NCBI GenBank assembly: GCA_947623865.1
Contig: CANQIC010000002.1
Location: 21,041 to 85,040 of the forward strand
Reading direction: 5' to 3'
Length of the DNA: 64,000 bases
Origin: an uncultured Clostridia bacterium
GTDB lineage: Bacteria > Bacillota > Clostridia > TANB77 > CAG-508
Of this stretch, positions 31,815 through 52,245 are shown in pieces. Below the pieces are notes generated by a model. That model was not told where the DNA came from. It did no database searches and was given only the letters and a program-made list of their open reading frames with translations. Position 1 is the stretch's first letter, and each line of letters opens with the position of its first letter. Made by a program: the position numbers and the translations under genes.

Positions 31815-31828
31815 TTTTTCCACCATTC

Positions 31829-33805: not shown

Positions 33806-33924
33806 TTTTGAATAGCTGACAAAACTAGCCTCTTACTCATATTAAACAAAAAATCTATTTAAACACTTAAAGTAGGACGGGCTATAAAAAAGGACTAGCT
33901 TTAAAACTAGCCCATTTTTTATTT

Positions 33925-34180
33925 TTAAAAATCTAAAATGATTTTTTGATTATCAATTATAAAGGTTAATGTATTAATTTCAATATCTGTCACATAGTCT
34001 AAACTTAATATAAATTCTTCATTTTTTGTGTCAGTTATAATTAAACTATGATTACTTATTAAAATCTTCGCATTATGTATTGCAAAATTTGTTATTATAG
34101 CTCCGTTTCATTATCACAGTAACATCTTTATCTAAAAAATTATTAAATAGTTTTTCTTCTAACATTTCTAAATCTTTCAT
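33925..34180 (-). CDS. hypothetical protein (about 84 aa); frame broken by extra C (plus ccg 34103-34105)
   Basis: MKDLEMLEEKLFNNFLDKDVTVIMK then, skipping C of CGG, GAIITNFAIHNAKILISNHSLIITDTKNEEF... Confidence 0.35.
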
Positions 34181-34195
34181 ACTTTTATTTCTCCT

Positions 34196-34758
34196 TTAAA
34201 TTTCAAAATCATTATAAGCCTCGTCAATCTCGTCTTGTTCTATTCCAATATAGCGAAGTGTTATTGAAGGGCTAGAATGGTTAAATAATTTCTGTAACAT
34301 TGCAATATCTTTTGATTTCTTATAAAAGTGATAACCGAAATGTTTTTCTTAATGTATGTGTTCCAATTTCTTCTAATCCCATCTTTGAAGCTACTTCATT
34401 TAATAGTCTATACGCTTGTATACGTGTAATAGGATTATTTATTCCTTTTCTGCTAGTAAATAAATAATCTGTCATTTTCATATTTTTTGTATATTCTAAT
34501 AGCTCTCTTGATACTGTATCATTTATTCTAAATCTTTTTTCTTTATTTGTTTTTTGTTCTTTTATGCAAATATGAGATTTTATACTTCTATCTTCGTTTA
34601 AGACATCTAAAGCTTTTAATTTTATTATATCTGATATGCGAAGTCCTGTATTTATACCTACTATAAATAATAAGTAATCTCTTGTTCCGCTTCTTTCTTA
34701 ATTCAACTTTCATTTCATTTATTTTATTTTTATCTCTTATAGGCTGTACGATTTTCAT
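34196..34758 (-). CDS. small tyrosine recombinase (phage-integrase family, about 186 aa); two extra-C frame breaks
   Basis: Minus-strand translation gives ...GINTGLRISDIIKLK...GTHTLRKTFGYHFYKK...LGH (R..H-x-x-R..Y catalytic residues) once the C's at plus ccg 34687-34689 and 34334-34336 are skipped. Confidence 0.6.
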
Positions 34759-35095
34759 TTTAAAATACCTCCTTATTTTCTATTTTTGTTACATTAAAAG
34801 TAACACTATAATTCAATATGATACATTCAAATTGTTTTATTTGAGAAAAAGTTACTAAAAAGTCTTATTTTTCAATACATCTTGCTTTTTTATTGAATGT
34901 AACAAAATAAGTATTGTGTTACATTCACTCATTATGAAAATATTTTTTTGCATAAAAAATACTTTTCAATGATATTTCTAAATAATTATTGAAAAGTAAA
35001 GCAAATTCATCTATAATAAAAATAGAATGACTTTTCAATAAGTTATTCGGTTTGTGATATAGTGTGCGACGCCAATCAAAGCACTATATCACTTT

Positions 35096-35305
35096 TTATT
35101 TTTCTTGTTTAGTTATAGTTATTTTTCCTTTTTGATATTTTACATTCAATTCGTCATCTTTATTAAATCCTGTTGTTTCAATTCCAGATTTTTTTAATGA
35201 TATTCTATAACCTTTTACAAATGCTGTATTATCCTTTCTATATTCTTTAATTTCTTGTAATCTAGCCATCTTCACTCCTTTCTTAACTTCATCCATATTA
35301 TACAA
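35096..35305 (-). CDS. small AbrB/MazE-like DNA-binding protein
   Basis: 69 aa; swapped-hairpin-like pattern; tentative. Confidence 0.3.
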   Translation of the reverse strand: MYNMDEVKKGVKMARLQEIKEYRKDNTAFVKGYRISLKKSGIETTGFNKDDELNVKYQKGKITITKQEK

Positions 35306-35446
35306 CGTGTGCTACGTTGTGTCAACATTTTATTTGTTTTCTTTTTTCTGAAGCATAAATATATTGAAATAGCTACTTTTTATACATTATGATATTATAA
35401 AAATTTCCTCGAATTCTTATACCAAATTAACTATATCTTTTATATA

Positions 35447-36259
35447 CTATTTATTTTTCATTCTACTTTTTTGTTTTCTTAACTTATCTTTCTCTTGTTC
35501 GGAATGTCTACAACAAAATTTTCTCTTTCCATTAAATGTAGCAAATTGTTCATGACATATTGAACAGACTTTTATCTTTACATTTCTTGCGTCACAGTCC
35601 ATTAATCCCTCTTCCGATAAAAACAAGAAATTAAATTGTAAAAAAGCTATATCAATTAGTTTATGACAATAATATATAAATTCATATTTATCGTTCTTCT
35701 CATTATAATTAAAAGTCAAAGTTACAGAATTCAAGTCATAATCCCAAACTTCTAATGGCACTATATTTCTTTTTATTTCTTGAATTGTCCTATATTTAGT
35801 ACCTAATACCTCGTTCGCTCCTTCAATATCTTCTTCATCTCCTGATATTAAAATCCATGCTCTAAATCTACAATACATACTATATGCTATAAAAGAAAAA
35901 TCATATATTTCAAGTCTATCTGTTTTCCCATTAGGCATACCATATTTTTTACATAATTGCATAATTTTATCACTTAATCTAATTGCTTCCTCATCTGTCC
36001 TTTTAAACATAGGATTATGTTTATTATCTCTACTAAAATTTTTATAAATATATTCTCCTATATGTAATATATCATACAAAACTGATATATCATTGCTTTC
36101 ATAATGCTTACTATTCTTGTTAAAGTTTATTCCCTGTATATAATAAGTTTTTTCTCCATTTGAAGCGCCTATTTTTCTTTCATAATTTTCAAATTGTATT
36201 GTTTCAGTTCCAATTATTTTAGGCATACTTATTTGCTTTGGTTCAAAGTCTAAAATCAT
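35447..36259 (-). CDS. hypothetical protein with C-terminal zinc finger
   Basis: 270 aa; CSICHEQF...CCRH cluster. Confidence 0.35.
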   Translation of the reverse strand: MILDFEPKQISMPKIIGTETIQFENYERKIGASNGEKTYYIQGINFNKNSKHYESNDISVLYDILHIGEYIYKNFSRDNKHNPMFKRTDEEAIRLSDKIMQLCKKYGMPNGKTDRLEIYDFSFIAYSMYCRFRAWILISGDEEDIEGANEVLGTKYRTIQEIKRNIVPLEVWDYDLNSVTLTFNYNEKNDKYEFIYYCHKLIDIAFLQFNFLFLSEEGLMDCDARNVKIKVCSICHEQFATFNGKRKFCCRHSEQEKDKLRKQKSRMKNK

Positions 36260-36553
36260 ATTTATTTCATCTCCTATTTAAAAGTCACAATAAATGTCAC
36301 ATTCACATTTAAAAAAAAATTTTAATGTCACGTTTATTTTATATTTTTTTATTTAGCAAAGCTATAAGATAAGTTCATAAAAAGAAACTAGTTTCCCTTG
36401 TTTTCTACTATTTTAGCATAATCTCAAAACATTTAAAAGTAGAAATTGAACATTGAAAATTAAATATTTTTTGATTAGATAAACTTTTTTAGTGCGTTGC
36501 ACACATACCTATCAAATGGCTTAAATAAAAAAATTTTTAAGGAGGTATAAATT

Positions 36554-37591
36554 ATGGTAGATACAATAACTGTACAGTTTAATTTTAACTATGATGTCAA
36601 CCAAATTGTACAATCAAAAATTAAAGAAGGAATAATTCCTATTAAAAAAAAGCCATATATAAATGGCAAAAGTGTTTTCGGTATTTATGTTGGAAGCAGT
36701 AGAATTTTTCCTAGTATTTATTACAATGCTAGATTTGGCTACGTTCTTATTACAATTAATACTAGGCTTCTTTTAGGACATGAACCAACTCCAAGTAATA
36801 TTACTTATATTGAAAAAGAGGTAATAGCTTTTTTTGAAAAGACCTTCGATATTTCTATGAATTACATTGATGCTCTTACTCTTAATAGAATAGATTACAA
36901 AGTAGATTTTAAAAGCAAATTTGGAGTAGAATCACAAATTTTTTACGAATTAAGAGATATTTTATCAGATACTTTAAATGGAATTGAAAAAAATATAGAA
37001 AAAAATAGCGTAAGCTATTGCCCAAAGAAAGGTTATATTGAATTGATTTCATATAACAAAGAAAATGAACTATATGAAAAAATGAAACATAAAAAAAATG
37101 ATGAAATATTCGCTAATAATGAAAGTATGAAAAATTACCTAGGAGTAATTAGAACGGAAGTACGAGTGAAAAATAAAAAATTAAATTATACAAAAAAATC
37201 ATTAGGTTTAGCAAAAGAGCTTCAAAATTATCTTGACGATTATATTGCTAACTATTTTTTTGAAAGCTATGCCCAAAAAATTTGGTATAAAGAGCCATTC
37301 TACAGAATTGATATTGCAATGAAAAAAATAAATATGGCAGAAAACATAAAACCTATGATGAAAGAAAAACTTAAAAATTTAATCTTTATGATACACAATA
37401 CTGGTATTACTAACACTAAAAAATTTTACAATAAAAAATATACCAGTTCAACATTTATCAGTCATATAAAAAAAATCAGAGATTTAGGTATAAACCCTCT
37501 AACTTTTAGTAAAAAATATGACGTTGAACAAATTGAAAATTTTGCTGTGTATAAATCAAATATTGTTAATGATTTACATACAATTAATTAA
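36554..37591 (+). CDS. hypothetical protein, possibly replication/initiator-like
   Basis: 345 aa, no recognisable motif; sits beside the recombinase module of the element. Confidence 0.3.
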   Translation: MVDTITVQFNFNYDVNQIVQSKIKEGIIPIKKKPYINGKSVFGIYVGSSRIFPSIYYNARFGYVLITINTRLLLGHEPTPSNITYIEKEVIAFFEKTFDISMNYIDALTLNRIDYKVDFKSKFGVESQIFYELRDILSDTLNGIEKNIEKNSVSYCPKKGYIELISYNKENELYEKMKHKKNDEIFANNESMKNYLGVIRTEVRVKNKKLNYTKKSLGLAKELQNYLDDYIANYFFESYAQKIWYKEPFYRIDIAMKKINMAENIKPMMKEKLKNLIFMIHNTGITNTKKFYNKKYTSSTFISHIKKIRDLGINPLTFSKKYDVEQIENFAVYKSNIVNDLHTIN

Positions 37592-37604
37592 AGAGGTGTA
37601 TCTT

Positions 37605-37745
37605 ATGGAAGTTAAGGAAATTTGCATTGATAATACAACGATAAAGTTTTTTGATAATTGTATTTTAGAATCAATGAAAGAAGCTAATTTAAGTAGTTTT
37701 GAAACTATCTTATTAGATTCTATAAAAAAAATAGAGAAATTGTAA
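37605..37745 (+). CDS. small ORF (46 aa) upstream of recombinase 2
   Basis: AAGAGGTG Shine-Dalgarno then ATG; same arrangement as at 27509 and 42292. Confidence 0.3.
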   Translation: MEVKEICIDNTTIKFFDNCILESMKEANLSSFETILLDSIKKIEKL

Positions 37746-37782
37746 TTTTCTTCAAAAGCATATATAATAGCACATAGTCAAA

Positions 37783-39372
37783 ATGAAAATTATGAGGAAA
37801 GGAGGAAATTTGGAAAGTGACGAATACGCTATATATTTAAGAAAGTCAAGAGAAGATAGAGATTTGGAAAAATATTGTGTCGGTGAAACACTTGCAAGGC
37901 ATGAAAAAACATTATTAAATCTGGCTCAAAACATGCATCTGCATATTGGAAAAATTTATCGTGAAGTTGTAAGTGGAGAAACAATTTCCGAACGAGAAGA
38001 AATGAAAAAGCTATTAAAAGACGTTGAAGAATGTAAGTGGTCTGGTGTTCTTGTTATGGAAGTTGAAAGATTAGCTCGTGGAGATCCATCCGACCAAGGA
38101 ATTGTTGCAACGGCTTTTAAGTCTTCCTCTACCAAAATAATTACTCCAAATAGAATATATGACCCTAATAATGAGTTCGATGAAGAATTTTTTGAATTTG
38201 GTTTATTTATGGCTAGACGAGAATATAAAACAATAAATAGAAGACTTCAACGAGGCAGAACAACCTCAATAAATGAAGGAAAATATGTAGGAAGTATTCC
38301 CCCATTTGGCTATGAGCGAAAAAAAATAGATAATGCAAAAGGTTATACATTAGTACCTAATGAAAAAGAAGCAAAAATCGTAAAAAAAATATTTGAATTA
38401 TACTCTTATGAAGATGTTTCATTAAACAGCGTTGCTAATAAAATGAACGAATTGGGATTAAAACCTATGAAGGCAGATAGTTGGTCTATCTCCTCTATTA
38501 AAGATATTTTAAATAATCCTGTTTATATCGGTAAAATAAGATGGAATTCAAGAAAACAAGTAATAAAATCAAAGAATGGTCAGAGAATTATTACAAGACC
38601 CAGAAACAATGACGTTACTATTATAGATGGTTTGCATGAACCTATTATAGATGAAAATCTTTGGAACATTGTAAAAAATAAGAGGAATTGTAATACTCCT
38701 CCTGTGCAACATAATAATGTTGTACAAAATCCACTTATGGGAATTGTCTTTTGTGAAAAATGTGGTAAACCAATGCAACGAAGGCCATATAATTTAAAAG
38801 GAAAACCAGCTACCTTAATGTGTAGTAATCCAAAGTGTGATAATATTAGCTCTAAGTTACATATTGTTGAAGAAAAGATTTTAGAAGCAATCGAAATATG
38901 GTTAAAAAACTATACTATAGATTATTCAAAGTTGAATAACAAAAAAAGAACAAAAACGTTTGATGAACTACAAGAATTAAAAGAATTAGAAAATAAATTA
39001 AAAAAAGAAAAAGAAAAATTAAATAAAGTTTATGAGTTATTAGAAGATGGTATTTATACAAAAGAAGATTTTTCTGAACGTTCAAAAACATTAAAAAATA
39101 GTATTACATTAATTGAAGCAGATATAAAAAAAGCTAAGGATAATGTAAACAAAATGAAAGAAATCGAAAAAAGAAAGGATATAATAATTCCTAAATTTAA
39201 AAATGTAATTGAAGTATATGATAAATTAGAAACAAGTGAGGAAAAGAATACTTTGTTAAAAAGCATTCTAGAAAAGGTTACATATTTAAAAACCGAAAAA
39301 GCTATAAAAAAGAATTCTGACCCTACAAAGTTTACTATTTGCATATATCCTAAAATTGCAAAAATTAATTAA
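37783..39372 (+). CDS. large serine recombinase (SpoIVCA-like)
   Basis: YAIYLRKSREDRD catalytic-serine region; recombinase and zinc-ribbon domains (CEKCGKPM...CSNPKCDN); coiled-coil; ends 60 bp before the right junction. Confidence 0.85.
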   Translation: MKIMRKGGNLESDEYAIYLRKSREDRDLEKYCVGETLARHEKTLLNLAQNMHLHIGKIYREVVSGETISEREEMKKLLKDVEECKWSGVLVMEVERLARGDPSDQGIVATAFKSSSTKIITPNRIYDPNNEFDEEFFEFGLFMARREYKTINRRLQRGRTTSINEGKYVGSIPPFGYERKKIDNAKGYTLVPNEKEAKIVKKIFELYSYEDVSLNSVANKMNELGLKPMKADSWSISSIKDILNNPVYIGKIRWNSRKQVIKSKNGQRIITRPRNNDVTIIDGLHEPIIDENLWNIVKNKRNCNTPPVQHNNVVQNPLMGIVFCEKCGKPMQRRPYNLKGKPATLMCSNPKCDNISSKLHIVEEKILEAIEIWLKNYTIDYSKLNNKKRTKTFDELQELKELENKLKKEKEKLNKVYELLEDGIYTKEDFSERSKTLKNSITLIEADIKKAKDNVNKMKEIEKRKDIIIPKFKNVIEVYDKLETSEEKNTLLKSILEKVTYLKTEKAIKKNSDPTKFTICIYPKIAKIN

Positions 39373-39434
39373 AGTAATATCAATAGTTGGAATTATAATT
39401 TTTATTTTGACTATTGATAACTTTAATGGAACAG

Positions 39435-39651
39435 TCGAACTTGCTCACTTAGAAATGGTTGGAACAATAGTTCACCAATTAACAGATGGAGTAGATGCTC
39501 AAGAATTAGAAAAGGCAGGATTAGGAGCATATTATACAGATCATGGTGTAGGAGTATATCCTCAAGCAGCAGCAGGATGGCCATGGAATGCAGCAACTAT
39601 AGCTGTAAAAGGTGATCCAATTGCAGATTTACAAGAAGACTTAGCTGCAGA
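39435..39651 (+). CDS. cotJC: CotJC-like manganese catalase, segment 2 of 3
   Basis: ELAHLEMVGTIVHQLTDGVDAQELEKAGLGAYYTDHG...AAGWPWNAATIAVKGDPIADLQEDLAA is the Mn-catalase central region; it diverges after cttagctgcaga at 39640-39651. Confidence 0.8.
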
Positions 39652-39847
39652 CACTGCACTCTTGAAAGCACAACATCAATAAAATGCAGTAAAATGAACC
39701 AATATTAAATAATTGCACTTACAATTTTGTAAGTGTTTTTTTGTTGGAAATCAAAATTGTTTAATTTTATTAGTATGTAACAATAGAATGTAAAATTAGT
39801 ATTTCGTGTACTAACTACTTACATTCTTTTTTATATCAAAGGGAGAT

Positions 39848-40111
39848 ATGATTATGGATAATCTTACAGTTGAAAGACTTACCCATTTCCCCAAGAATGA
39901 AAAACTATATCATAAAAGGAAAGGCATTAAAGTACCACCAAAAGAAAAGATGAAATATAAAGAATGCCCAGAATATGAATCAACAGAGCATACAAGAATA
40001 TCAAGTAAAACATATATGATAAAGAATTTGCAAAGTGATAAAATTGTAAATACCATATCAACAGACATTTATAAAAAGACTATATCAAAAAATCAAGACC
40101 AGGATTTATAA
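39848..40111 (+). CDS. hypothetical protein
   Basis: 87 aa ORF with RBS AAGGGAGA. Confidence 0.3.
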   Translation: MIMDNLTVERLTHFPKNEKLYHKRKGIKVPPKEKMKYKECPEYESTEHTRISSKTYMIKNLQSDKIVNTISTDIYKKTISKNQDQDL

Positions 40112-40698
40112 CACAACCTACCACACCAACAGTAGAAACATCAACTACAAAGAAATCAAGAATTATAGAAATAATAGAAAAACAAAAACAACCAAGTGAA
40201 ACAGTGTTTTGGGAATTCTTTTAAATACAATTAAAATATTAATAGATAACTATAATAAAAGGGGTGTTATTAGACCAAATTAGCTTGAACTTACAAATAG
40301 AAATATAAAAAGGGGATATTAAATTAAAGAGTTAGAATTCTTGGAACTATAAGAGATAGATTTAGAAGAAATTATTTCATATTTAAAATTAAATAATAGC
40401 CCAACAATTACAATACTTGATGACCTTAACTATGATTTGTTTAATCAACTTGTTGCGTATGCAGAAACATTAAAGTTGATATTCTTTATAGTAAAAGGAA
40501 CATATAAGATAGCCGTAATTTGTAATAGATAAATTGCATTAAAGATAGCCCAAATATTCAAGATAAAAGCACAGATTATGTTTTATAGTAATCTAAAACC
40601 TAGAAAGTTATATTGATACAAATATTAAAAAAGTATATACTTGAAAAATAGACTTTAAAAGCAATTCCAGTTGCAACCCCAGTTGCACAAGCAAAAAT

Positions 40699-40727
40699 TT
40701 GCATTTTACGTGAATCTGTGTTATAAT
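40699..40727 (+). promoter_or_regulatory. sigma-A-type promoter
   Basis: TTGCAT, 17-bp spacer, TATAAT upstream of 40795. Confidence 0.5.
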
Positions 40728-40794
40728 ATATATAATATTCGTGGGTACAGCGAACTATAACAAATGTACCATCTTGTAAGAAACTTTCAAGATT

Positions 40795-41181
40795 TTGGAG
40801 GTCAAAATGAGAACACGGAAATTTTCCAGAATTGCAGTCGTAATAATTATGGTTGTTGTGGTGGTGGCTCTCGCTATAATAGCCAGCGTATTCACTTCAT
40901 TTAACGACCATACCTATACGGCGACCGTTACAGACAAAGAGCGGATTGTTAAAAATGACGATGGAGATGTTGATTCCTACTACTTGATTTTTTGCAAAGA
41001 TGATGGGGGAAATTACTATGAATTTAAGAACGAGGATAATTTACTCCGTTTAAAATTTAACTCATCTTCTGTCTATAATCAGATTGAAGTAGGAGAAACA
41101 TACCAATTTACCGTTGTTGGTTTCCGCATCGGACTGTTCTCATGGTATGAAAATATCATTAAATTTGAAAAGATTAATTGA
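40795..41181 (+). CDS. membrane-anchored DUF1093/YxeA-like protein, foreign composition
   Basis: 128 aa; N-terminal TM. GC is locally much higher than the surroundings and there are two in-frame CGG Arg codons that are not frame breaks. Terminator follows at about 41205-41240. Confidence 0.45.
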   Translation: MEVKMRTRKFSRIAVVIIMVVVVVALAIIASVFTSFNDHTYTATVTDKERIVKNDDGDVDSYYLIFCKDDGGNYYEFKNEDNLLRLKFNSSSVYNQIEVGETYQFTVVGFRIGLFSWYENIIKFEKIN

Positions 41182-41371
41182 ATGTTTTCTACCAACCAAA
41201 AAGAATGTATTTTCTTTTCCCCTTATGGGGTTTCTTTTTTTGACCTTTGAATGTAATACAATATACATTTTAAAAATTGATTAAGTATACTTGTATCAAT
41301 GCCTTCACAAAATAGCACTTATTCCCCTATCAAGAAAATATAATATACTGTATTAACATATAACATTTAAT

Positions 41372-41656
41372 ATGGAACAAGAACAATATTTATTTCCAAG
41401 ACAAAAGCGTACAAATAGACCTATAACAACAGTACAAGCATATCGAATATTAAATAAAGCCGGAGCAAATATAGGACTTGCAGAAATTGCTACACATACA
41501 ATGCGAAAAACTTTTGGTTACCACCACTACCAACAGAATAAAGATGTAGCCATTTTACAAGAAATATTTAATCATTCAGCCCCAAGCATAACTTTAAAAT
41601 ATATAGGAATAAACCAAGATAACATAGACCAAGCATATAAAAATTTTAGACTATAA
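41372..41656 (+). pseudogene. truncated tyrosine recombinase (C-terminal catalytic fragment)
   Basis: ...ATHTMRKTFGYHHYQQ...LKYIGI... is homologous to the C-terminal half of the 34196-34758 integrase; the N-terminal domain is missing. Confidence 0.55.
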
Positions 41657-42291
41657 ATCAAAAGAGTACTAGATAGAATACATCTAGTACTTTTACTTTT
41701 TAAGCAATACCCAAAACGACCATTTTTGGTACTATTTTCTATTCATATAAGCATTTACAGATTTCTTAAATAAGTAGTAAATTTCCCTTTGAACAGAGCA
41801 ACTACATTCAAAAATAATATTGTCTTTTGTTTTTTTATCTGTTACATCTTTAAGTTGAGCAATAGCATTTTCAATTTGTATAGCAAATACATCTAACAGA
41901 TTAGATTTAGAAATAATATTATTTAATACATCATTTTTATGTTATTATCAATTTCACTTAGTATTTGTCTTGAATTAGAATCTAAATGAAATTTGTTAAA
42001 GTTAGGGTCATCAGTTGGTTCAGTAAAAAGGCATCCCAGAAAATTTTATAAAAATCATTAAATACAGAATAATGATACTTTTACCCAGCCACAGACATCG
42101 CAATGGGGGGTAATCTTGTAAAAGAGCAAGAAGATGGAATTCCTATGTACTGTAGAAGCAGTAGTTTAATGATTAGTTACACCTAGAGAATACAACGTGG
42201 CATTCATTAGATATAACACAATATTACTAGAATATGAGTGCATAAGTGTTTTATTTCGTGAATAGATTTAATTAAGAGAGGTGTATTAAAT

Positions 42292-42402
42292 ATGGACTCA
42301 ATAGTATGTGAGAATGTATTTGTTTCAGCAAATGAAACAGAAAAAAGCCAAGCATTCAATGAAGTTTGGCAAATGGTAGTAAATATGATAATAAATAAAT
42401 AA
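42292..42402 (+). CDS. small ORF (36 aa) upstream of recombinase 3
   Basis: AAGAGAGGTG Shine-Dalgarno then ATG. Confidence 0.25.
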   Translation: MDSIVCENVFVSANETEKSQAFNEVWQMVVNMIINK

Positions 42403-42475
42403 ATTTAGTGAAACCAGTTTACAAGAGCCAAGATTATGTGTTATAAAATGTAGCAGATAATATTGGTTCTTTTTA

Positions 42476-44068
42476 TTGTTTTCTGTAAGGGGGAAAATAG
42501 AAATGAAAAGAACAAAACCACTAGTTGCAATATATTGCAGATTATCACAAGAAGATAGAGATAAGAAATCAAGGGAGGACGATAGCGAGAGCATTAAAAA
42601 TCAAAAGATAATGTTAACAGAATATGCAAATGACCAAGATTGGGACATATATGGAATATATAGTGATGATGATTACACTGGAACGGATAGAAATAGACCT
42701 GCATTCAATGAAGTTATAGAACTTGCAAAACAAAAGAAAATTGATATTATTCTATGCAAAAGTCAAAGTAGATTTGCAAGAGAGTTAGAAATAGTGGAAA
42801 TGTATATAAATCGTTTATTTCTTGACTGGGGTATAAGGTTTGTAAGTGTAACAGACAATATAGATACTGCAATAGAAGGAACTACTGTAATGAGGCAAAT
42901 GAATGGTATTATGGATGAAAGATATGTTGAAAATTTATCAGTAAGTATAAAATCAGCATTAAAGACTAAAAGAGCAAATGGCGAATATACTGGTGGATTA
43001 CCACTATATGGTTATAAAAAAGATCCGAACCAAAAAGGACATCTAATTATAGACCCAGAGCCAGCAAAAGTTGTAAGAAGAGTATTTTCTTTATATAATC
43101 AAGGATATGGAAAAACAGCAATAGCAAGAATACTAAATAACGAGGGTATACCCAATCCAACCCAATATAAATTTGAAAAAGGTGTCAAATACAAGACACC
43201 ACCTAATAAACTTGGAACATATTGGAAATACTTTGCAATATCAGATATGTTATGCAATGAAATGTACATAGGAAATATGGTACAAGGAAAATATGGAACT
43301 ATTTCTTATAAGACACATAAGAATAGACCTAAACCACCAGAACAATGGGTTAGAGTTGAAGGAACACACGAACCTATTATAGAAATGGACTTATGGAATA
43401 GTGTACAAAACAAAATCAACAGTAACTTTAAACCATACAAAAATGGAAAAATAGGTTTGTTTGCAAGAAAATGTAAGTGTATGTATTGTAATTATACAAT
43501 GAAATCTAGTAAATCACATGGAGATAGATATTTAAGGTGTAGTACAAAACATGTTTCAAAAGATAGTTGCCAAGGTAGTTTTGTATCAGAGAAAGCACTT
43601 GAAAGGGTAGTCTTGAAAGAACTAAATCATTTAATAGAAAAATATCTAAACATAAGTGAATTTGAAAAAAATATTGTTTTGAAACAATATAGAAATAATA
43701 AAGAAGAATTGCAACAAGAGATTTCAAAGCATCAAAATAAGATAAATGCATATTCAAAAGCATTAAAGGACTTATATATGGACAAAACAAATGAAATTAT
43801 AAGTCAAGAAGAATTTATAGCATTAAGCAATGATATTAGAAAAGATAAGGAAACAGTCGAAGCATTAGTAACAGAAAGAAAAAAACAGTTGTTAGAACTT
43901 AATAATGAACAAGACTTATTAAAAACTAAAAAGCAATTATTAGAAAAATACATAAATGTAGAACAACTTTCAAGAGAAATGGTAGATAATTTAATAGATT
44001 ATATAGAAGTTGGTAGAAAAGACACCAAAACTAAACAACTGCCTATAAAAATTCATTGGAAAATTTAA
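42476..44068 (+). CDS. large serine recombinase
   Basis: VAIYCRLSQEDRD catalytic-serine region; recombinase domain; zinc ribbon (CKCMYCNY...CSTKHVSKDSC); coiled-coil. True start is probably ATG 42503 behind AAGGGGGAAAA. Stop lies 24 bp before the junction. Confidence 0.85.
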   Translation: MFSVRGKIEMKRTKPLVAIYCRLSQEDRDKKSREDDSESIKNQKIMLTEYANDQDWDIYGIYSDDDYTGTDRNRPAFNEVIELAKQKKIDIILCKSQSRFARELEIVEMYINRLFLDWGIRFVSVTDNIDTAIEGTTVMRQMNGIMDERYVENLSVSIKSALKTKRANGEYTGGLPLYGYKKDPNQKGHLIIDPEPAKVVRRVFSLYNQGYGKTAIARILNNEGIPNPTQYKFEKGVKYKTPPNKLGTYWKYFAISDMLCNEMYIGNMVQGKYGTISYKTHKNRPKPPEQWVRVEGTHEPIIEMDLWNSVQNKINSNFKPYKNGKIGLFARKCKCMYCNYTMKSSKSHGDRYLRCSTKHVSKDSCQGSFVSEKALERVVLKELNHLIEKYLNISEFEKNIVLKQYRNNKEELQQEISKHQNKINAYSKALKDLYMDKTNEIISQEEFIALSNDIRKDKETVEALVTERKKQLLELNNEQDLLKTKKQLLEKYINVEQLSREMVDNLIDYIEVGRKDTKTKQLPIKIHWKI

Positions 44069-44091
44069 TAGTTGTACTATCAGAGGTATAA

Positions 44092-44322
44092 CAGAGCAAA
44101 AGGCTAGGGCAACTTATGAAAAATTAATAGATTTATGCAAGGATGACCAAGATGTTATTGACCCACTTCGTTTCTTAAGAGAAAGAGAAGTAGTTCACTT
44201 CCAAAGATTTGGAGAAGCATTACGTGGAGTACAAGATAAACTTGCAGAGAAGAAATTTTATATGAATAATAACAATGATATGAAATGTAGATAAAGAAAA
44301 AGTCCCATAGGGACTTTTTCTT
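44092..44322 (+). repeat. direct repeat copy 1: cotJC 3' end (last 66 codons) plus terminator
   Basis: 231 bp, one mismatch to 46040-46270; encodes EQKARATYEKLIDLCKDDQDVIDPLRFLREREVVHFQRFGEAL... Confidence 0.85.
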
Positions 44323-44349
44323 TATACCATGTGATAAATCTTTAGATGA

Positions 44350-45159
44350 TTAATAATTTAAAAATTTTATTAAACTACTATTGAATTCATCTTTAACATC
44401 ATAAAAAGCTCCATGACCAGCATTTTTAAATGGATATAAAATTGAAGAACGAATATTATTATGCATAATTTCTGCCATAGGAAAAGGACATATTTTATCT
44501 TCTTTTCCATGAAAAATAGCTGTTGGAACATGGATATATTTTAACGAATCAAATATATCTTCATCCCTAAGAGTAATTAAAGAATTCATTTCTCCTATTC
44601 CAGAAGCACTATTACTTAAATTTTGAAACCAGTTTTTAAATGCTATCGAAGGTTTTTTGTAAAAAAACATATTTCCGAAATTTTCATTTAAAGCTGGTCT
44701 GTCATTATATCCTAGCTTTATTAAATCATTGGTAGATTCTATTTTTTGACCATATGGATTATTTGTTGTTTTAGAATATGAAGGAACAGCAGAATCAAGC
44801 AAGCATAATTTTCTAACGCCATACCCATTATACATTTGCATGTATTTTGTAGCAATTGTTCCTCCCATTGAAAAACCTAGTAAATCAAAATTTGATAAAT
44901 TTAAAGCATATATTACATAATATAAATCAGTTGCAAATTGATTATAATTATATCCATTACTTGTTTCATCAGAATTTCCAAATCCTCTTATATCAATACT
45001 TATAATTCTATATCCATTTTTTATTAAATCTGGTAATTGGTATTCAAACATCTTATGTGATAAAGGCCAACCATGAATTAAAACAATTGTCTTATATGCA
45101 TTTGGATTTAATTGGTAAACCGCTATATTTGCATTATCATTTGATGGAATAAAAAACAT
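44350..45159 (-). CDS. alpha/beta-hydrolase fold protein
   Basis: 269 aa; HGWPLSHKMF; GFSMGG nucleophile elbow. Confidence 0.7.
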   Translation of the reverse strand: MFFIPSNDNANIAVYQLNPNAYKTIVLIHGWPLSHKMFEYQLPDLIKNGYRIISIDIRGFGNSDETSNGYNYNQFATDLYYVIYALNLSNFDLLGFSMGGTIATKYMQMYNGYGVRKLCLLDSAVPSYSKTTNNPYGQKIESTNDLIKLGYNDRPALNENFGNMFFYKKPSIAFKNWFQNLSNSASGIGEMNSLITLRDEDIFDSLKYIHVPTAIFHGKEDKICPFPMAEIMHNNIRSSILYPFKNAGHGAFYDVKDEFNSSLIKFLNY

Positions 45160-45326
45160 TAAAATCTCCTTCTTTCATAAATAGTAATATATAATATGGA
45201 AATATAAAAAATTAGTGATAAAAAAGATATTCATAATTGTCTGATTTTCTTAAAAAGTCTTGATTTTGTAAATAAAATGCAGTATAATAAATATAATAAT
45301 AGTGGATATTTAATATCTACTATAAT

Positions 45327-45435
45327 TAAAAATGTGAGTCGCAACCCTATTTGCGTCGAATAAATGGATAGGTGAAAAAATGTGAACCGCAACCCTGCTT
45401 GCGAGATATAAATGCGCAGGTGAAAAAATGTTAAT
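45327..45435 (+). ncRNA. ToxI-like antitoxin RNA: two 48-nt tandem repeats plus a partial third
   Basis: aaaaatgtgaGTcgcaaccctATttgcgTCGaAtaaatgGATaggtg then aaaaaatgtgaACcgcaaccctGCttgcgAGAtataaatgCGCaggtg. Each has an internal cgcaa/ttgcg hairpin; period is 48. Confidence 0.5.
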
Positions 45436-45448
45436 TATAGTAAAATGT

Positions 45449-45483
45449 GGGGTCTATAAAATTAATTTAGATCCCATATTTTC
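45449..45483 (+). terminator. leaky terminator between the RNA repeats and the toxN-like gene
   Basis: ggggtcta..tagatccc stem followed by ATATTTTC. Confidence 0.5.
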
Positions 45484-45504
45484 ATAAAAAGGAGTTAAAT
45501 AATA

Positions 45505-45990
45505 ATGATAATAGAAGATGGAAAATTTTATTTTATAAAAGATGAATTTTTTGATATATTTAAAGATTATAAATTGATGGAAAACAAAGAAGGTGGAAAT
45601 AAAAGACCTTGTTACTTTTGTTTTAGAGATAGAAAAAATAAAGAAATAATATGGTTTGTTCCAATATCGACTAAATATGATAAATATAAGAAGATATATG
45701 ATAATAAAAAATTAAAAATTGGAAATAAACCAGTATATAATTTTGTTTTTGGTAATGTGTTAGGCAAAAAAGCTGTATTTTTAATACAAAATATATTTCC
45801 AACAACAGAAGAATATATATTAGAAAAATATACAAATTCAAATATAGATGTAGAAATACCTACAGTAGTAAAAAACGAAATTATAACTACTGCATTAAGA
45901 GTTGTGAGGCTTGCAGAAGAAGACATACATATTCCATTTTATGATATTGTTGAAATGAGAAATGTTTTATTAAAAGATAAAAATAATTGA
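45505..45990 (+). CDS. ToxN/AbiQ-family endoribonuclease toxin (type III TA)
   Basis: 161 aa; N-terminal GKFYFIKDEFF...KRP...IWFVPISTK resembles the ToxN/AbiQ N-terminus; gene order is repeats, terminator, toxin. Confidence 0.5.
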   Translation: MIIEDGKFYFIKDEFFDIFKDYKLMENKEGGNKRPCYFCFRDRKNKEIIWFVPISTKYDKYKKIYDNKKLKIGNKPVYNFVFGNVLGKKAVFLIQNIFPTTEEYILEKYTNSNIDVEIPTVVKNEIITTALRVVRLAEEDIHIPFYDIVEMRNVLLKDKNN

Positions 45991-46039
45991 ACTGGAAAAA
46001 ATCTTACTAGTTCAAAATGTTACAGCCAATACTTAGCTG

Positions 46040-46270
46040 CAGAGCAAAAGGCTAGGGCAACTTATGAAAAATTAATAGATTTATGTAAGGATGACCAAGA
46101 TGTTATTGACCCACTTCGTTTCTTAAGAGAAAGAGAAGTAGTTCACTTCCAAAGATTTGGAGAAGCATTACGTGGAGTACAAGATAAACTTGCAGAGAAG
46201 AAATTTTATATGAATAATAACAATGATATGAAATGTAGATAAAGAAAAAGTCCCATAGGGACTTTTTCTA
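46040..46270 (+). repeat. direct repeat copy 2 (retains the full cttagctgcaga core, so it is the likely genuine cotJC 3' end)
   Basis: identical to 44092-44322 except C/T at one position. Confidence 0.85.
46042..46242 (+). CDS. cotJC: CotJC-like manganese catalase, segment 3 of 3
   Basis: With segment 2 it reads ...DLQEDLAAEQKARATYEKLIDL..., the conserved Mn-catalase C-terminus; a bidirectional terminator aaaaagtcccatagggacttttt follows. Confidence 0.75.
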   Translation, partial: EQKARATYEKLIDLCKDDQDVIDPLRFLREREVVHFQRFGEALRGVQDKLAEKKFYMNNNNDMKCR

Positions 46271-46273
46271 ACA

Positions 46274-46889
46274 TTACATAATACTTCTAATTTTTTCTAT
46301 AATCATATTTAATGCAACTTCATTTTGTCCACCTTCTGGAACTATGATATCTGCAAATTTTTTACTAGGTTCTACAAATTGTTCGTGCATAGGTTTTACA
46401 ATTGTACAATATTCTGATACAACAGTATTTAATGTACCACCTCTTTTTTCAACATCACGAAGTAATCTTCTTATAAATCTAATGTCAGCATCAGTATCAA
46501 CGAATATTTTTATATCCATCATATCTCTTAACTCTTTATTTTCAAATATTAAAATTCCTTCTAAAATAATAACCTTTTTTGGAATAACTTCAACAGTTTC
46601 AGATTCTCTTTTACGTTCAAGAAATGAATATTTAGGTCTATATATTGTATGACCCTTTTTTAATTCTTCTAAATGTTTAATTAAAAGATTTGTTTCAAAA
46701 GAATTGGGATGATCATAATTAAGTTTAACTCTTTCTTCAAAAGGTAGATTAGAATGATCATTATAATAAGAATCATGTGAAATCATAGTAATATTATTAT
46801 CAAATTCTTTTTTTATATTTTCTGCAAGAGTAGTTTTCCCGTGAACCAGAACCACCTGCTATACCAATTATAATAGGATTTAATCCCAT
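46274..46889 (-). CDS. udk: uridine kinase; frame broken by extra C (plus ccg about 46839-46841)
   Basis: Minus-strand MGLNPIIIGIAGGSGS then, skipping C of CGG, GKTTLAENIKKEF... gives the Walker A GSGSGKTT. Confidence 0.8.
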
Positions 46890-47038
46890 TTGCGTAACCT
46901 CCAAATTAAAATTCTTATATATATTTTAAAATAATATTTTAATAAAAGCAAGAAAAACTGACAAAATAAGATAAAAAATGAAGTTGCAATTATTTTTAAA
47001 TAGAAATATAATATATAAAATTAAAAGTAGGTGTTAAT

Positions 47039-47411
47039 ATGGTATTAATAGGAAAAGTAAAAAGTGGACTTCGGGGAAGCAAGTTATTGGATGAAAAAAG
47101 CAGAAAGTGCGTTTGAGAAAAAAATAGGATTAAAATTATTTCATGGAACACTGAACATTGAATTAGAAAATGAATATGTATTAAGTGGAAACTTAGAAGT
47201 TTTACATAAAGAAGAATATGGAGGAATTCAAGAGGTATATATTAAAGAGTGCGAAGTGCTAGGAAATAAATCATATATATTAAGAACAAGTAAAAACATG
47301 ACAAATAATGGAGATCATCCATTAAATATACTAGAGATAATTTCAGACATAAATTTTAGAGAAAAATACAAACTTAAAGATGGAGATAAAATTCAAATTT
47401 CAATTAAATAA
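47039..47411 (+). CDS. CTP-dependent (archaeal-type) riboflavin kinase-like protein; frame broken by extra C at 47072
   Basis: MVLIGKVKSGL then, skipping C of cttCgggga, GEASYWMKKAES...HGTLNIEL... matches the RibK/DUF120 family. Confidence 0.6.
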
Positions 47412-47431
47412 ATTGTAATTTGTTTGTGAGA

Positions 47432-47500
47432 GGAAAATCCTAGGGACTGTCCCTAAAAATCACCAATTTTGGGGATTTTTGGGACTGTCCTGAATTTTCC
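47432..47500 (+). promoter_or_regulatory. GC-rich palindromic leader element upstream of spoIIIA
   Basis: 15-bp perfect palindrome TAGGGACTGTCCCTA (47441-47455); second copy GGGACTGTCC (47481-47490); flanking complementary ggaaaatcc / ggatttt / gaattttcc segments. Confidence 0.35.
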
Positions 47501-47601
47501 GAACATGAAACAAACAACAATTTATTTGCTTTTTAGTTCTAATTTTTTTTAATCAGCATATATATATTAAAAGGACAAGTTACGTATAAGGAGAAAAGTA
47601 T

Positions 47602-48550
47602 ATGCTAATTTCTAACCTTCTTACATATTTTCCAGAAGAAATTTTTAAAATTATAGGAGATTACTTTAAAGAGGATACAGAAGAAAAAAATAAATCAATA
47701 GAAGAAATACGTTTAAGAGCGGAAAAACCACTAATATTAAAATTCAATAAAAAAGAAATAGCTTTTAAAATGAATGTGACTCAAGAAATGATTTTACAAA
47801 CTTTGCAGAGGGTTTGCGATAATTCTATATATTCATTTCAAAACCAAATTAGAGAAGGATTTATTACTGTAAAAGGTGGGCATAGAGTAGGAATTACTGG
47901 TAATTGTGTAATAGAAGATAATCGAGTGTCTAATATTAATTACATATCCAGTCTTAATTTTAGAATAGCAAAAGAAATAAAAGGATGTAGTAATAAACTT
48001 TTGAAATTTGTATTAGATTTAGAAAATAATAATATTTATAATACACTTATTGTATCTCCTCCTGGAGTACGGAAAAACAACAATTTTGCGAGATTTAATC
48101 CGAAAAATTAGTACAGGCATAGAAAAGTTAAATTTTCATGGAATAAATGTTGGACTAGTTGATGAAAGAGGGGAACTTGCTGCTATGTACAAAGGGATAC
48201 CTCAAAATGATATAGGGTTAAGAACAGATGTACTCGATAACATACCAAAATCTATAGGAATGAGAATGCTTATAAGATCTATGTCACCAAAAGTCATTTC
48301 AGCAGATGAAATAGGCAATGAAAATGAAATAGAAGCTATAAATTATTCGATATGTTCAGGAATTAAAGGGATATTTACTGCACATGGAGCAAGCTTAGAA
48401 GAGATATCAATAAATCCTACTTTAAAATCATTGTTAAATTTACATGTTTTTGAAAGAATAATTTTTCTAACTGATAAAAAAAGAAAAGCAGAGATTAAAA
48501 CTGTTTATAATTTAAATAGAAAAACATCAGAATATTCAATTATGGAGTGA
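47602..48550 (+). CDS. spoIIIAA: stage III sporulation protein AA (ATPase); frame broken by extra C at 48070
   Basis: Deleting C in gtaCggaaa restores the Walker A SPPGVGKTTILRDLIRKIS. Confidence 0.8.
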
Positions 48551-48554
48551 TTTT

Positions 48555-49064
48555 ATGCTAATAATCAAAATTATAATATATTCATTTATATTTTTATCAT
48601 GTTCATTAATTGGAATACTAATTTCCAGAAAATATGTAAATAGAGTAAATGAATTAAAAGAATTTAGGAATGCATTAAATATATTTAAAACTAAAATAAG
48701 ATATACATATGAACCATTACCAGAAATATTTTCAGAAATATCAGAAAGTGTTAATCCAAATATATCAACGGTATTTAAAAAAGCAGCAGAAAAGATGAAG
48801 ATTTGTGCAGCAGGAGAAGCATGGGATTTTGCTTTAAAAATAGAAGATTTAAGCATTGATGATGAAGATAGGAATGCATTAAAAAATCTCAGTAAATTAC
48901 TAGGAAAAACAGATTTAGAAGGACAACTTAATCAAATAGAAATGACATCAGATTTTTTAGATAAACAAATTAGAAAAGCTGAAATTCAGAAGGATAAAAG
49001 TGAAAAAATGTATAGAACACTTGGAATGATAATGGGAATGCTAATAGTAATTATACTTGTTTAA
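48555..49064 (+). CDS. spoIIIAB: stage III sporulation protein AB
   Basis: 169 aa; position in operon; N-terminal TM. Confidence 0.65.
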   Translation: MLIIKIIIYSFIFLSCSLIGILISRKYVNRVNELKEFRNALNIFKTKIRYTYEPLPEIFSEISESVNPNISTVFKKAAEKMKICAAGEAWDFALKIEDLSIDDEDRNALKNLSKLLGKTDLEGQLNQIEMTSDFLDKQIRKAEIQKDKSEKMYRTLGMIMGMLIVIILV

Positions 49065-49075
49065 AGGAGATACAT

Positions 49076-49270
49076 ATGAATATAGATTTATTATTTAAAA
49101 TAGCTGCAATAGGAATATTGGTTGCAGTTTTGCATCAGGTTTTAGTAAGAGCTGGAAGAGAAGATCAAGCAATGATGACAACATTAGCAGGTTTAGTAAT
49201 TGTACTTACAATGGTTATAAAAGAAATAAGTACATTGTTTAATACAGTAAGAACTATATTTGGACTATAA
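49076..49270 (+). CDS. spoIIIAC: stage III sporulation protein AC
   Basis: 64 aa two-TM protein. Confidence 0.7.
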   Translation: MNIDLLFKIAAIGILVAVLHQVLVRAGREDQAMMTTLAGLVIVLTMVIKEISTLFNTVRTIFGL

Positions 49271-49352
49271 AACTATATTTTTTCTTTTTTTGATGAAGTA
49301 GATTTATTTTTTAAAAAATGCTAGATTTACTCCATCTAAAAAAGAAAAAGAA

Positions 49353-49763
49353 TTGAATAGAAAGGTGAATTTTAGTTTGGAAATAGTAAAAATAATAGGT
49401 GTAGGGATAACTGCACTTATAATAATTATTATATTAAAACAGTACAAGCCTGAATTTACAATATATGTATCAATAATAACAGGAATAATTATTCTTATTA
49501 TGGTTATGGATCAGTTAAATGCAGTAGTTAAAGTTTTAACAAATCTTGCGAATAAAACTGGGACAGGAAGTACATTTTTAAAGATACTCTTAAAAATTAC
49601 TGGCATTGCAATACTCACTGAATTTGCAGTAAGTATTTGCAAAGATTCAGGAGAAAGTGCTATTGCTAGTAAAATTGATTTAGGTGGAAAAATATTAATT
49701 ATAAGTATATCGATTCCAATAATTACAGCATTGTTAGAATTAATTATAAACATATTACCATAA
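49353..49763 (+). CDS. spoIIIAD: stage III sporulation protein AD
   Basis: about 130 aa, 4 TM; start may be the downstream TTG at 49377. Confidence 0.65.
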   Translation: MNRKVNFSLEIVKIIGVGITALIIIIILKQYKPEFTIYVSIITGIIILIMVMDQLNAVVKVLTNLANKTGTGSTFLKILLKITGIAILTEFAVSICKDSGESAIASKIDLGGKILIISISIPIITALLELIINILP

Positions 49764-49783
49764 TAATTTATTAGGGAGAATAA

Positions 49784-50931
49784 ATGATAAAGAAAATTAC
49801 AATTTTGTTTATTTTAATATATCTAATTATATTTCCTAAATCATATGCAACTGATGAAATTATTTCATCACAAATGGATTCATTGAATATATCCTCGTTT
49901 ATAGATGAAGGAGAAAAATATACAGAAGATGTATTCCCTGATACGAATTTAAATGACTTTTTAAATTCGGCAATTAAAGGTGAGATTGACAATAAAAGCA
50001 TATATAAAGGTATTTTGTCGATATTTGGTGATGAAATAGTATCAGCAATATCTCTTTTAGGAAGTATTTTGATAATCATAATAATACATAGTATATTAAA
50101 GAATTTTACTGAAAATCTAAGCAATAGCGAAGGAATAGGTCAAATAGCATATTATGTAGAATATATTATGATTGTTACACTAATAATGGCTAACTTTTCA
50201 AACATAATTAATATGATAAAAGAATCTATTGCAAATTTAGTTGGTTTTGTAAACTGTTTAGTCCCAATTTTACTTGCTCTAATGTATGCTACTCGGAAAT
50301 GTTGCATCAGTTACTTTAATACAACCATTAATAATATTTTCAGTTGTATTTATATCAAATGCAATAACACTATTTGTTTTACCAATTTCTCTGATTGCTA
50401 CAGCATTAGGAATAATATCAAACTTATCAGAAAAAGTTCAAATAGGAAAATTATCTAAATTTTTAAAATCAGGAATAACTTGGTTTTTAGGAGTAGTAAT
50501 AACTATATTTATAAGCATATTATCATTAGAAGGAAGCCTAACTAGTAATGTAGATCGGTCTTGCAGCAAAGGGAATAAAAGCTGCTACATCTACTTTTAT
50601 ACCAGTAGTAGGTAAAGCATTGGGAGAATCAGTAGATATGGTAATTGGGTCAACTTCTATATTAAAAAATTCTATTGGAATTGTAGGTATGTTTGTGGTA
50701 ATTGGAATATGTGTTATGCCTATAATTAAATTAACAATACTAACTATTACATATCATTTTGCATCTGCAATATGTGAACCATTAGCAGATAAGAAAATAG
50801 TATCGTTATTAGATCAAATGGGTGGAACATTTAAAGTCCTTTTAGGAATTATGTTTTTTGTAGCAGTACTCTTAATTGTTGGACTAGCTATGTGTATAAA
50901 GATATCTAATAACGGAATGATGTATAGGTAG
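49784..50931 (+). CDS. spoIIIAE: stage III sporulation protein AE; two extra-C frame breaks at 50294 and 50556
   Basis: Three ORFs (49784-50458, 50286-50615, 50620-50931) join as ...LMYATGNVASVTLIQ... and ...SNVDGLAAKGIKAATSTFIPVVGKALGESVDMV..., i.e. the SpoIIIAE permease-like fold. Confidence 0.75.
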
Positions 50932-51582
50932 GTGAAAAATTTGATTAGTTTCATAAATTCATGGGCTAAAGGGATAATATTAGCAGTAGTAATTGCAACA
51001 ATAATTGAAATTATTTTACCTGAAGGAAATAATAAAAAATATGTGAAGACAATTATAGGAATTTATATTATGTTTGTTATGATATATCCATTAATATCAA
51101 AAATATCAAATAAAAATATAAATATTGAAGGGATTATAGAAAACACAACAAATGAAATGAGAAAATTTGAAACGGATAATAATATAGCAATAGAAACTAA
51201 TACCTATATAGAAGAAACCTATAAACAAAAACTAGAAAATGATATGAGAGAAAAAACAAAAGAAAAGGGATATGAAATCAATTCTTTAGATTTATACATA
51301 GAAACACAAAATAATGAAAGTTATGGACAAATAAATACTATTGTTATGCAAATATCTAAAACAGAAAAAACAGACGAAGATATCACTACAACAGATAATA
51401 ACATTATAAAAAATGATGTTGATAATATACAAAATGTTGAGATAAAAATATTAAATAATAATACAAAAAATAATAATAACATACAAAATGAAAACATCTC
51501 TAAAGAAGAAATAGAAAACTTAAAAGATTATTTCAATTCTATTTATGGAGTTGAAAAAGAAAAAATATATATTAATGAGTAG
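50932..51582 (+). CDS. spoIIIAF: stage III sporulation protein AF
   Basis: GTG start; N-terminal TM; operon position. Confidence 0.6.
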   Translation: MKNLISFINSWAKGIILAVVIATIIEIILPEGNNKKYVKTIIGIYIMFVMIYPLISKISNKNINIEGIIENTTNEMRKFETDNNIAIETNTYIEETYKQKLENDMREKTKEKGYEINSLDLYIETQNNESYGQINTIVMQISKTEKTDEDITTTDNNIIKNDVDNIQNVEIKILNNNTKNNNNIQNENISKEEIENLKDYFNSIYGVEKEKIYINE

Positions 51583-52224: not shown

Positions 52225-52245
52225 AACATGTGAAAATTAGATTTA

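Follow-up and report, generated by a model that had tools for sequence, protein, structure and literature searches.

In a 64,000-nucleotide stretch of DNA from an uncultured Clostridia bacterium (GCA_947623865.1, contig CANQIC010000002.1; hereafter the window), the cotJA-cotJB-cotJC operon is cut three times, and the 3' end of cotJC is found twice, on either side of a hydrolase gene and a toxin-antitoxin system of type III. This arrangement probably consists of two unrelated things side by side: an excisable element, Element 3, which separates the body of cotJC from the first copy of its 3' end (copy 1), and a hydrolase/CptIN module that is the fossil of another cotJC element and abuts the second copy (copy 2). 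An earlier note on this DNA had proposed either two stacked elements or a single element with an internal decoy copy of the gene end. The features that it described were all present in the sequence, and only minor corrections to coordinates and counts were needed.

The junctions of Element 3

The order of the locus was established from open reading frames (ORFs), Pfam matches and joining tests. It runs cotJA, cotJB, Element 1, the end of cotJB with cotJC segment 1, Element 2, cotJC segment 2, Element 3, copy 1, the 1.7-kb module, copy 2, udk and the spoIIIA operon. Each of the three elements that cut the operon (window 19145-46270) has a large serine recombinase (LSR) at its right edge. BLAST mapping of the uninterrupted orthologous locus L002 onto the window located every breakpoint (29323-29543, 39428-39651, 44092-44295 and 46028-46243). 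L002 and L004 have cotJA-cotJB-cotJC-udk with neither elements nor module; cotJC is intact in L002, L004 and L005, and the window segments cover the intact gene end to end. In L005 and L006, the sole interruption is an Element-1-like recombinase gene directly upstream of intact cotJC. In all of L002-L006, udk lies directly 3' of cotJC with no module between them.

Joining position 39651 to 44096 in silico gave a 201-residue CotJC that was 98% identical to P0001, an uninterrupted protein of 201 residues. Element 3 thus resembles the skin elements in lying inside a sporulation gene that is intact in relatives, in having an LSR at its edge with the stop codon 23 nt from attR, and in that joining at CAGA restores the reading frame of the target gene in silico.

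Homologues indicate which junctions are used. A scan of species-representative genomes for recombinase 3 identified proteins with 78-79% amino acid identity in five metagenome-assembled genomes (MAGs) of uncultured Clostridium (L009-L013). In L011, cotJC segment 1+2 is one continuous stretch, and the element separates it from the 3' end of the gene, at the same codon as Element 3; the two elements are homologous at the left end (39652-39745) and at the right end (42093-44091). The right end is common to L009, L010, L011, L012 and L013, the left end to L011 and L013. At the borders in L011, cotJC reads ...GCAGCAGA on the left and CAGAACAAAAAGC on the right, with conserved P' and P arms. In the attL alignment, ...GCAGCAGA is followed by the conserved P' arm; in the attR alignment (L009, L011, L012, L013), recombinase, P arm, CAGA and the cotJC 3' end follow one another without a gap. 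Neither the hydrolase nor cptIN was found at the Element-3-like loci L009-L013, and there is no second copy of the cotJC 3' end in L011 and L013, whose contigs reach beyond the gene. When the two ends of the L011 element were joined as attP, the dyad around the GA of CAGA matched at 18/26 positions, which 1 of 500 shuffles also attained.

These comparisons lead us to conclude that Element 3 spans 39652-44091, with its right junction directly after recombinase 3 and with copy 1 in the restored gene. That Element 3 is a real, self-contained element, as in the first of the two earlier accounts, is borne out by the four MAGs in which recombinase, P arm and cotJC 3' end succeed one another, and by the conserved left end in L011. 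Recent horizontal spread is suggested by a separate observation: the L009-L013 MAGs, which belong to different GTDB species, have Element-3-like elements that are 98-100% identical, and several bases vary among their cotJC 3' ends.

A different right junction would follow if 39652-46039 were one composite element, with a 13-mer at 46031-46043 as attR and copy 1 as an internal decoy or spare 3' end. Segment 2 ends, as the earlier note had it, with ...CTTAGCTGCAGA (39640-39651), followed by CACTG, and this 12-mer does recur before the last part of the gene, at 46032-46043 and not one position further on. The true shared identity is the 13-mer ACTTAGCTGCAGA (39639-39651 and 46031-46043), a direct repeat which flanks the entire 6.4-kb stretch, and cores of about 13 nt occur in some serine integrase systems. 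However, the homologous elements end at the recombinase and P arm. The DNA to the left of 46031 has no P arm and comes from another element family, and the junction of 46039 with 39652 gives a dyad of only 11/26. Moreover, an attB of a serine integrase is about 40 bp long, and the 9 nt of one arm beside the copy 2 core are too few for a half-site. The comparative loci and the att-site evidence led us to reject the composite model, which we regard as very improbable, and with it the internal decoy, which finds no support.

Element 3 contains, besides its recombinase (PHROG 95 integrase, E = 1e-107; we used the ATG at 42503, while the ORF list has a TTG at 42476), a few small features (Table 1). 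Its tyrosine integrase fragment (41372-41656) covers only positions 92-169 of the 172 of the PF00589 profile. A comparable C-terminal fragment lies inside Element 2 (34320-34481, minus strand), and both are relics of further integrative DNA nested there. The pemK-RNA-like motif scored 34.5 bits, slightly under the gathering score of 34.8 for RF02913, and is homologous by BLAST to L009-L013 over the part 42093-42148; no such match was found upstream of recombinases 1 and 2. The 36-residue ORF at 42292-42402 matched no family in NCBIfam and PHROG profile searches and might be considered a candidate excision cofactor (recombination directionality factor).

The duplicated gene end and the module

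A repeat finder identified two 230-nt direct copies, at 44092-44321 and 46040-46269, and a near-identical repeat of this length cannot have arisen by chance. In a base-by-base comparison, the copies differed at a single position (44138 C, 46086 T) in a synonymous Cys codon, and identity stopped at 44322/46270. Each copy indeed holds the last 66 codons plus terminator, as described previously, although the repeat in copy 1 ends at 44321 and not at 44322. The near-identity holds as well, with 229/230 (or 229/231, position 231 being T versus A) replacing 230/231. As also described before, copy 1 comes directly after recombinase 3; it starts 23 nt past the stop codon (44066-44068), where ...GGTATAA meets CAGAGCAAAAGG. 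The mismatch gives no clue to the ancestral copy, as either base occurs among relatives. Direct folding predicted a strong hairpin with T-run in each copy (-20.8 and -18.3 kcal/mol, z about -6.5). A scan of 43900-46400 for consensus terminators found none, probably because the stems run into A/T tracts.

The two copies are not equivalent. Copy 2 has no in-frame start codon. It runs on into udk, as cotJC does in relatives, and its Element 3 target core is uninterrupted; it would therefore derive from a cotJC allele in which Element 3 was absent. Copy 1 serves as the working 3' end of cotJC once Element 3 has been excised, and copy 2 is a dead fragment. For annotation this means that copy 2 should be treated as a pseudogene fragment, and that cotJB and cotJC should not be labelled pseudogenes. 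With its junctions fixed, Element 3 allows both the excision product and the working cotJC 3' end to be predicted.

The DNA between the copies (module M) consists of the hydrolase gene, cptI and cptN only, with no recombinase of its own and no att sites. The hydrolase, looked up as an exact protein, was not on record. The toxin-antitoxin system had been labelled ToxIN, which was not borne out: the toxin matched no Pfam family, ToxN_toxin (ToxN/AbiQ) included, at E up to 10, and its best matches were CptN of PDB 4RMO (E = 2e-17) and the NCBIfam model NF047359. PADLOC gave no significant match for CptN. The H-type pseudoknot described for CptI RNA (PMC4627078) has a loop 1 of 1 nt and a loop 2 that is long and rich in A, and the cptI repeats in the window can be modelled with both of these loop features. 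All 10 of its 10 pairs form in each variant, with only 5 distinct repeats available and 3 of 500 shuffles reaching the score; two pairs covary through compensatory changes between repeat 1 and repeat 2. Across loci the repeats are almost invariant, while the toxins are only 85-95% identical. Judged by the toxin family and by the layout of promoter, repeats and hairpin, the type III system is predicted to be CptIN. The CptIN system of Eubacterium rectale (PDB 4RMO; PMC4627078, PMC3401426) also has two tandem repeats, a terminator and a CptN-family toxin. The system in the window differs in its 48-nt rather than 45-nt repeat and in its chromosomal location in a recombinase-element relic.

Both halves of the module have close relatives at the cotJC locus elsewhere. 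The cptIN cassette recurs with 95% nucleotide identity in L015 and with 87% in L016 and L022-L023; in all of these it is placed directly upstream of a cotJC fragment starting at the Element 2 site. In L023 and L024, cotJB and segment 1 (65 residues) are followed by an element of about 5 kb and then by segments 2+3; this element encodes, on the minus strand, a recombinase like that of Element 2 (LSR2-like), and its right end is occupied by cptIN. The hydrolase gene is 95.6% identical in L027 and 89% identical in L028, just upstream of cotJC segment 2 in both and, in L028, between an LSR2-like gene and the P arm. Another hydrolase locus, P0242, is 90% identical. Within the same contigs, the module is 95-96% identical while the adjoining cotJC is 80-81% identical, which shows that these modules move horizontally. 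Palindromic motifs (GTTCACTTAGTGAAC/GTACAC) flank cptIN in L015 (2640-2700, 3478-3520) and L016 (520-650, 1580-1620), and L015 also has a hairpin GTGCAATTTTTGCAC; the palindromic flank motifs are absent from the cptIN copy in the window.

The edges of the module suggest how it was cut. At the junction of module and copy 2 (J2), the module ends in a truncated form of the motif AAAAT(G/T)(G/T)TACAGCCAATA, which lies 40-100 nt from attR in L015, L023 and L027 and has the P arm as its continuation there; the window version is joined instead to cotJC sequence, at a point nine bases to the left of the Element 3 core. At the junction of copy 1 and module (J1), homology to the hydrolase flank of L027 and L028 begins about 25 nt from copy 1, and the join falls inside the terminator T-run. 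A possible match of 17/19 nt between the left flank of the module and the hydrolase flank of L028 was not aligned by MAFFT and is weak evidence. The module would accordingly be a mosaic of two cargo modules and a right-end fragment of an Element-2-site element, with both junctions illegitimate. The right end of the resident Element 2 is complete, and the parent of the module would therefore have been a different element copy, on a different cotJC allele. Of the accounts offered previously, two stacked elements came nearer the truth than an internal decoy; 44323-46039 lacks recombinase and att sites and would be a fragment of the other element family.

The Element 2 target GAAGAATTAGCT (in relatives; 29533-29543/39428-39438) and GAAGACTTAGCT, left of the Element 3 target (39630-39651), are near-identical 12-mers. 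Each falls within a helix motif of the Mn-catalase fold, the two motifs (TEELAH and QEDLAAE) being similar, and J2 is positioned exactly after the GAAGA of the second motif. The possibility that J2 is a genuine Element-2-type attR at the look-alike GAAGACTTAGCT (versus GAAGAATTAGCT) was rejected, J2 having neither P arm nor GAAGA core. Microhomology was rejected as well: only 1 nt is shared at J2, and a neighbouring TTTACA match is off the junction.

Table 1. Features of the cotJC locus, in window positions
Feature	Position	Strand	Description
Element 1	about 19811-29326		In the 3' end of cotJB; CCATGGG core
Element 1 cargo			1437-aa non-ribosomal peptide synthetase-like gene, histidine kinase, response regulator, recombinase 1
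Element 2	about 29544-39436		In cotJC at about codon 63; recombinase 2 at right edge
cotJC segment 2	39437-39651	+	About codons 63-135; equivalent of L002 10184-10407; from translation
Element 3 insertion point			cotJC codon about 135
attL core of Element 3	39648-39651	+	CAGA, last 4 nt of segment 2
Element 3	39652-44091	+	4.44-kb skin-like intervening element between CAGA cores
P' arm of attL	39652-39700	+	CACTGCACTCTTGAAAGCACAACATCAATAAAATGC...; kept in L011 and L013; forms dyad with P arm
Predicted secreted/membrane protein	40795-41181	+	128 aa; Element 3 cargo; PHROG 301 'secreted protein', E = 9e-25
Tyrosine integrase C-terminal fragment	41372-41656	+	94 aa; relic; Pfam PF00589, E = 9e-12; PHROG 216 integrase
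pemK-RNA-like motif	42069-42148	+	Upstream of recombinase 3; Rfam RF02913, E = 0.002
36-aa ORF	42292-42402	+	Ribosome-binding site; kept in L009-L013 with conservative amino acid changes
Large serine recombinase 3	42503-44068	+	521 aa from ATG; Pfam Resolvase, Recombinase, Zn_ribbon_recom
P arm of attR	44069-44091	+	TAGTTGTACTATCAGAGGTATAA; kept in L009, L011, L012 and L013, then cotJC 3' end directly
Copy 1	44092-44321	+	66 codons; stop 44292-44294; terminator hairpin 44291-44325
Module M	44322-46030	.	J1 at 44321/44322 in T-run; J2 at 46030/46031
Alpha/beta hydrolase	44350-45159	-	269 aa; esterase-like; GFSMGG nucleophile elbow (GxSxG); Pfam Abhydrolase_1, E = 8e-26
cptI promoter	45260-45288	+	Sigma-70-like, TTGATT-17-TATAAT; inside stretch aligning with L015 and L016
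cptI antitoxin	45328-45423	+	48-nt repeat in two tandem copies; H-type pseudoknot possible in each
Terminator-like hairpin	45442-45482	+	Between cptI repeats and cptN; -18.7 kcal/mol, z = -5.0
cptN toxin	45505-45990	+	161 aa; NCBIfam NF047359 CptIN toxin, 157 bits (cutoff 90)
Truncated outer end motif	46013-46031	+	AAAATGTTACAGCCAATA; Element-2-site family; cut after AATA
Copy 2	46031-46269	+	9 nt of segment 2 end (ACTTAGCTG, 46031-46039) plus 230-nt repeat
udk	46274-46855	-	Uridine kinase; Pfam PRK; native downstream neighbour of cotJC

A proposed history and its alternatives

We propose that recombinase 3, probably together with a small cofactor, would recombine attL (39648-39651) with attR (44092-44095) at CAGA. 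Element 3 would leave as a 4.44-kb circle, and segment 2 would be fused to copy 1. Excision of Elements 1, 2 and 3 would rebuild both cotJB and cotJC, presumably at sporulation and in the mother cell. The module and copy 2 may represent the attR-proximal cargo of an element of the Element-2-site family, still joined to the native cotJC 3' end and udk. J2 would then be a deletion of the P arm of that element and of all of segment 2 but 9 nt, and J1 an illegitimate join at the terminator T-run, by which the relic acquired on its left an excision-restorable cotJC allele with copy 1 as its end. The simplest accounts of the history that we could infer take these two illegitimate events.

The module would stay after excision of Element 3, downstream of a complete cotJC with its own terminator, and could be lost only via RecA-type recombination between the 230-nt repeats. 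That such recombination would delete the module without restoring cotJC, as had been pointed out before, holds by geometry. A working CptIN pair would be expected to select against loss of the module. It could also provide phage defence by abortive infection, which has been shown for other type III systems (PMC3401426).

Several observations weigh against this history. At least two illegitimate events are needed. A mere 9 nt separate J2 from the Element 3 core, for which the probability by chance is about 5%. J1 is present in the window assembly only. The hydrolase and cptIN were found side by side in none of the genomes compared, and the J2 sequence had no match in JGI metagenomes and IMG/VR; the parent element is therefore inferred, not seen. 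The attP of the window gives an ungapped dyad of 13/26, a non-significant score, since one arm carries a 1-nt indel that breaks the register.

A Campbell-type insertion would explain the topology in another way. A circle with the module and a 239-bp cotJC 3' fragment (ACTTAGCTG...terminator) would have entered an intact cotJC 3' end, by homologous recombination or through a now-lost integrase, duplicating the fragment and keeping the gene whole, and Element 3 would have come later, into the only complete attB. The order of full gene end, module and 5'-truncated copy fits exactly, the uninterrupted core in copy 2 is expected if the duplication predates Element 3, and Element 3 would have picked the site with two full arms. 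Against this, the module has no integrase, formation of the circle itself still needs both illegitimate junctions, and the truncated Element-2-site end motif at J2 indicates that the module was once joined to cotJC elsewhere. No such circle or plasmid was found: the module had no blastn match in plasmids, and CptN had no tblastn match in phages. We consider this route unlikely.

An assembly artefact, with the repeat expanded or the contigs of two strains joined through it, was the objection raised with the original description. At 230 nt the repeat is longer than the k-mers in common use, the source appears to be a metagenome (coverage of L001 is 4x), and J1 is again the junction that is known from the window only. 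However, the copies differ at one base, and an independent metagenome contig (L001), 100% identical to 45144-55990, reproduces the junction from module to copy 2 and on to udk. The right flank of the module is a 5'-truncated fragment, implying that a second, complete 3' end must exist somewhere, and reads that lead into the module from its left side can only come out of a cotJC terminator sequence. An artefact is thus a distant prospect, and an excisable Element 3 beside a fossil of another cotJC element remains our preferred interpretation.

Known systems and the traffic at cotJC

Skin-like elements that serine recombinases excise from sporulation genes are well documented (PMC5025042, PMC4191935, PMC5499854, PMC5595907). 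The skin elements of Bacillus subtilis and Clostridioides difficile (sigK, SpoIVCA) share with Element 3 the position inside a mother-cell sporulation gene (PMC5025042; bioRxiv 10.1101/2022.02.25.481979), an LSR at the edge, directly upstream of the 3' gene fragment, a short core repeat, arms with dyad symmetry (significant in the L011 homologue of Element 3), and variable, degraded cargo. Precise excision restores the ORF in skin elements, and in silico in Element 3. In contrast to them, Element 3 is located in cotJC instead of sigK, is only 4.4 kb long and shares the operon with two more recombinase elements. A skin-like element in cotJC has been described in Laceyella sacchari (bioRxiv 10.1101/2022.02.25.481979). 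It has the same target as Element 3, and differs in belonging to another class of Firmicutes; the passage that describes it mentions neither multiple occupancy nor a relic duplication. The gerE gene of Bacillus cereus ATCC 10987 contains the gin element, and spsM contains SPbeta (SprA/SprB). Both elements are excised, as part of the sporulation programme, by a serine recombinase that acts together with a small directionality factor (PMC5595907, PMC5499854, PMC4191935). They are, like Element 3, intervening elements (non-phage or prophage) with a serine recombinase, but occur one per gene, and their factors were found by experiment, whereas the 36-residue ORF is a candidate. A duplicated 3' end of the target gene is also known from genomic islands and prophages (for example with tRNA- or tmRNA-targeting integrases), which resemble the module in having a flanking direct repeat of the gene end and an intact gene. 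Their repeats are att sites of a resident integrase, while the module has no integrase, a repeat of 230-239 nt, and one flank that is the truncated end of another family.

What we describe is thus known mobile-element biology without a new mechanism; Element 3 is a further skin-like element, and element turnover has left the module behind as an ordinary scar. More notable than the duplication is its wider setting, with three elements in one two-gene operon, extra sites in L028 and L033, and a recombinase after cptN. Cargo that is 95-96% identical across species whose cotJC is about 80% identical documents element turnover at one sporulation gene, and a type III toxin-antitoxin cassette has here outlasted its destroyed carrier element.

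The extra sites were seen in two loci. In L028 (reverse-complemented 10962-14500), segment 2 is split, close to the equivalent of window 39595, by an element that encodes a 541-residue recombinase and a toxin-antitoxin pair of the HepT/MNT kind. In L033 (6053-8602), cotJC is broken after about residue 104, beside a recombinase 39% identical to recombinase 3. With at least five insertion sites across loci, cotJC looks like a hotspot.

An LSR gene lies 3' of cptN on the same strand in 43 of 80 metagenome loci with CptN relatives (L029-L108). These recombinases are about 25% identical to those in the window, and the gap to cptN is mostly about 140-400 nt, with 1.1-1.65 kb in seven loci (L092, L094, L095, L096, L097, L103, L104). 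CptIN appears to be a common recombinase-adjacent cargo.

A more far-reaching interpretation, which we put forward tentatively, is that the cotJB-cotJC operon of the gut Clostridium lineages compared here is a contested landing pad for serine-recombinase elements. The duplication would record one element allele displacing another with the addictive CptIN surviving, and CptIN would be standard cargo. If so, three excisions, each independent of the others, would have to precede expression of the spore-coat genes in the manner of a developmental AND gate, and CptIN would make elements, even wrecked ones, hard to lose.

Downstream of the locus, a stretch of about 120 nt (window 47406-47527) between a riboflavin-kinase-like gene and spoIIIAA matches itself inverted and has matches at two further intergenic positions of L002 (14263-14378 and 17581-17701). 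This stretch is a small dispersed palindromic repeat.

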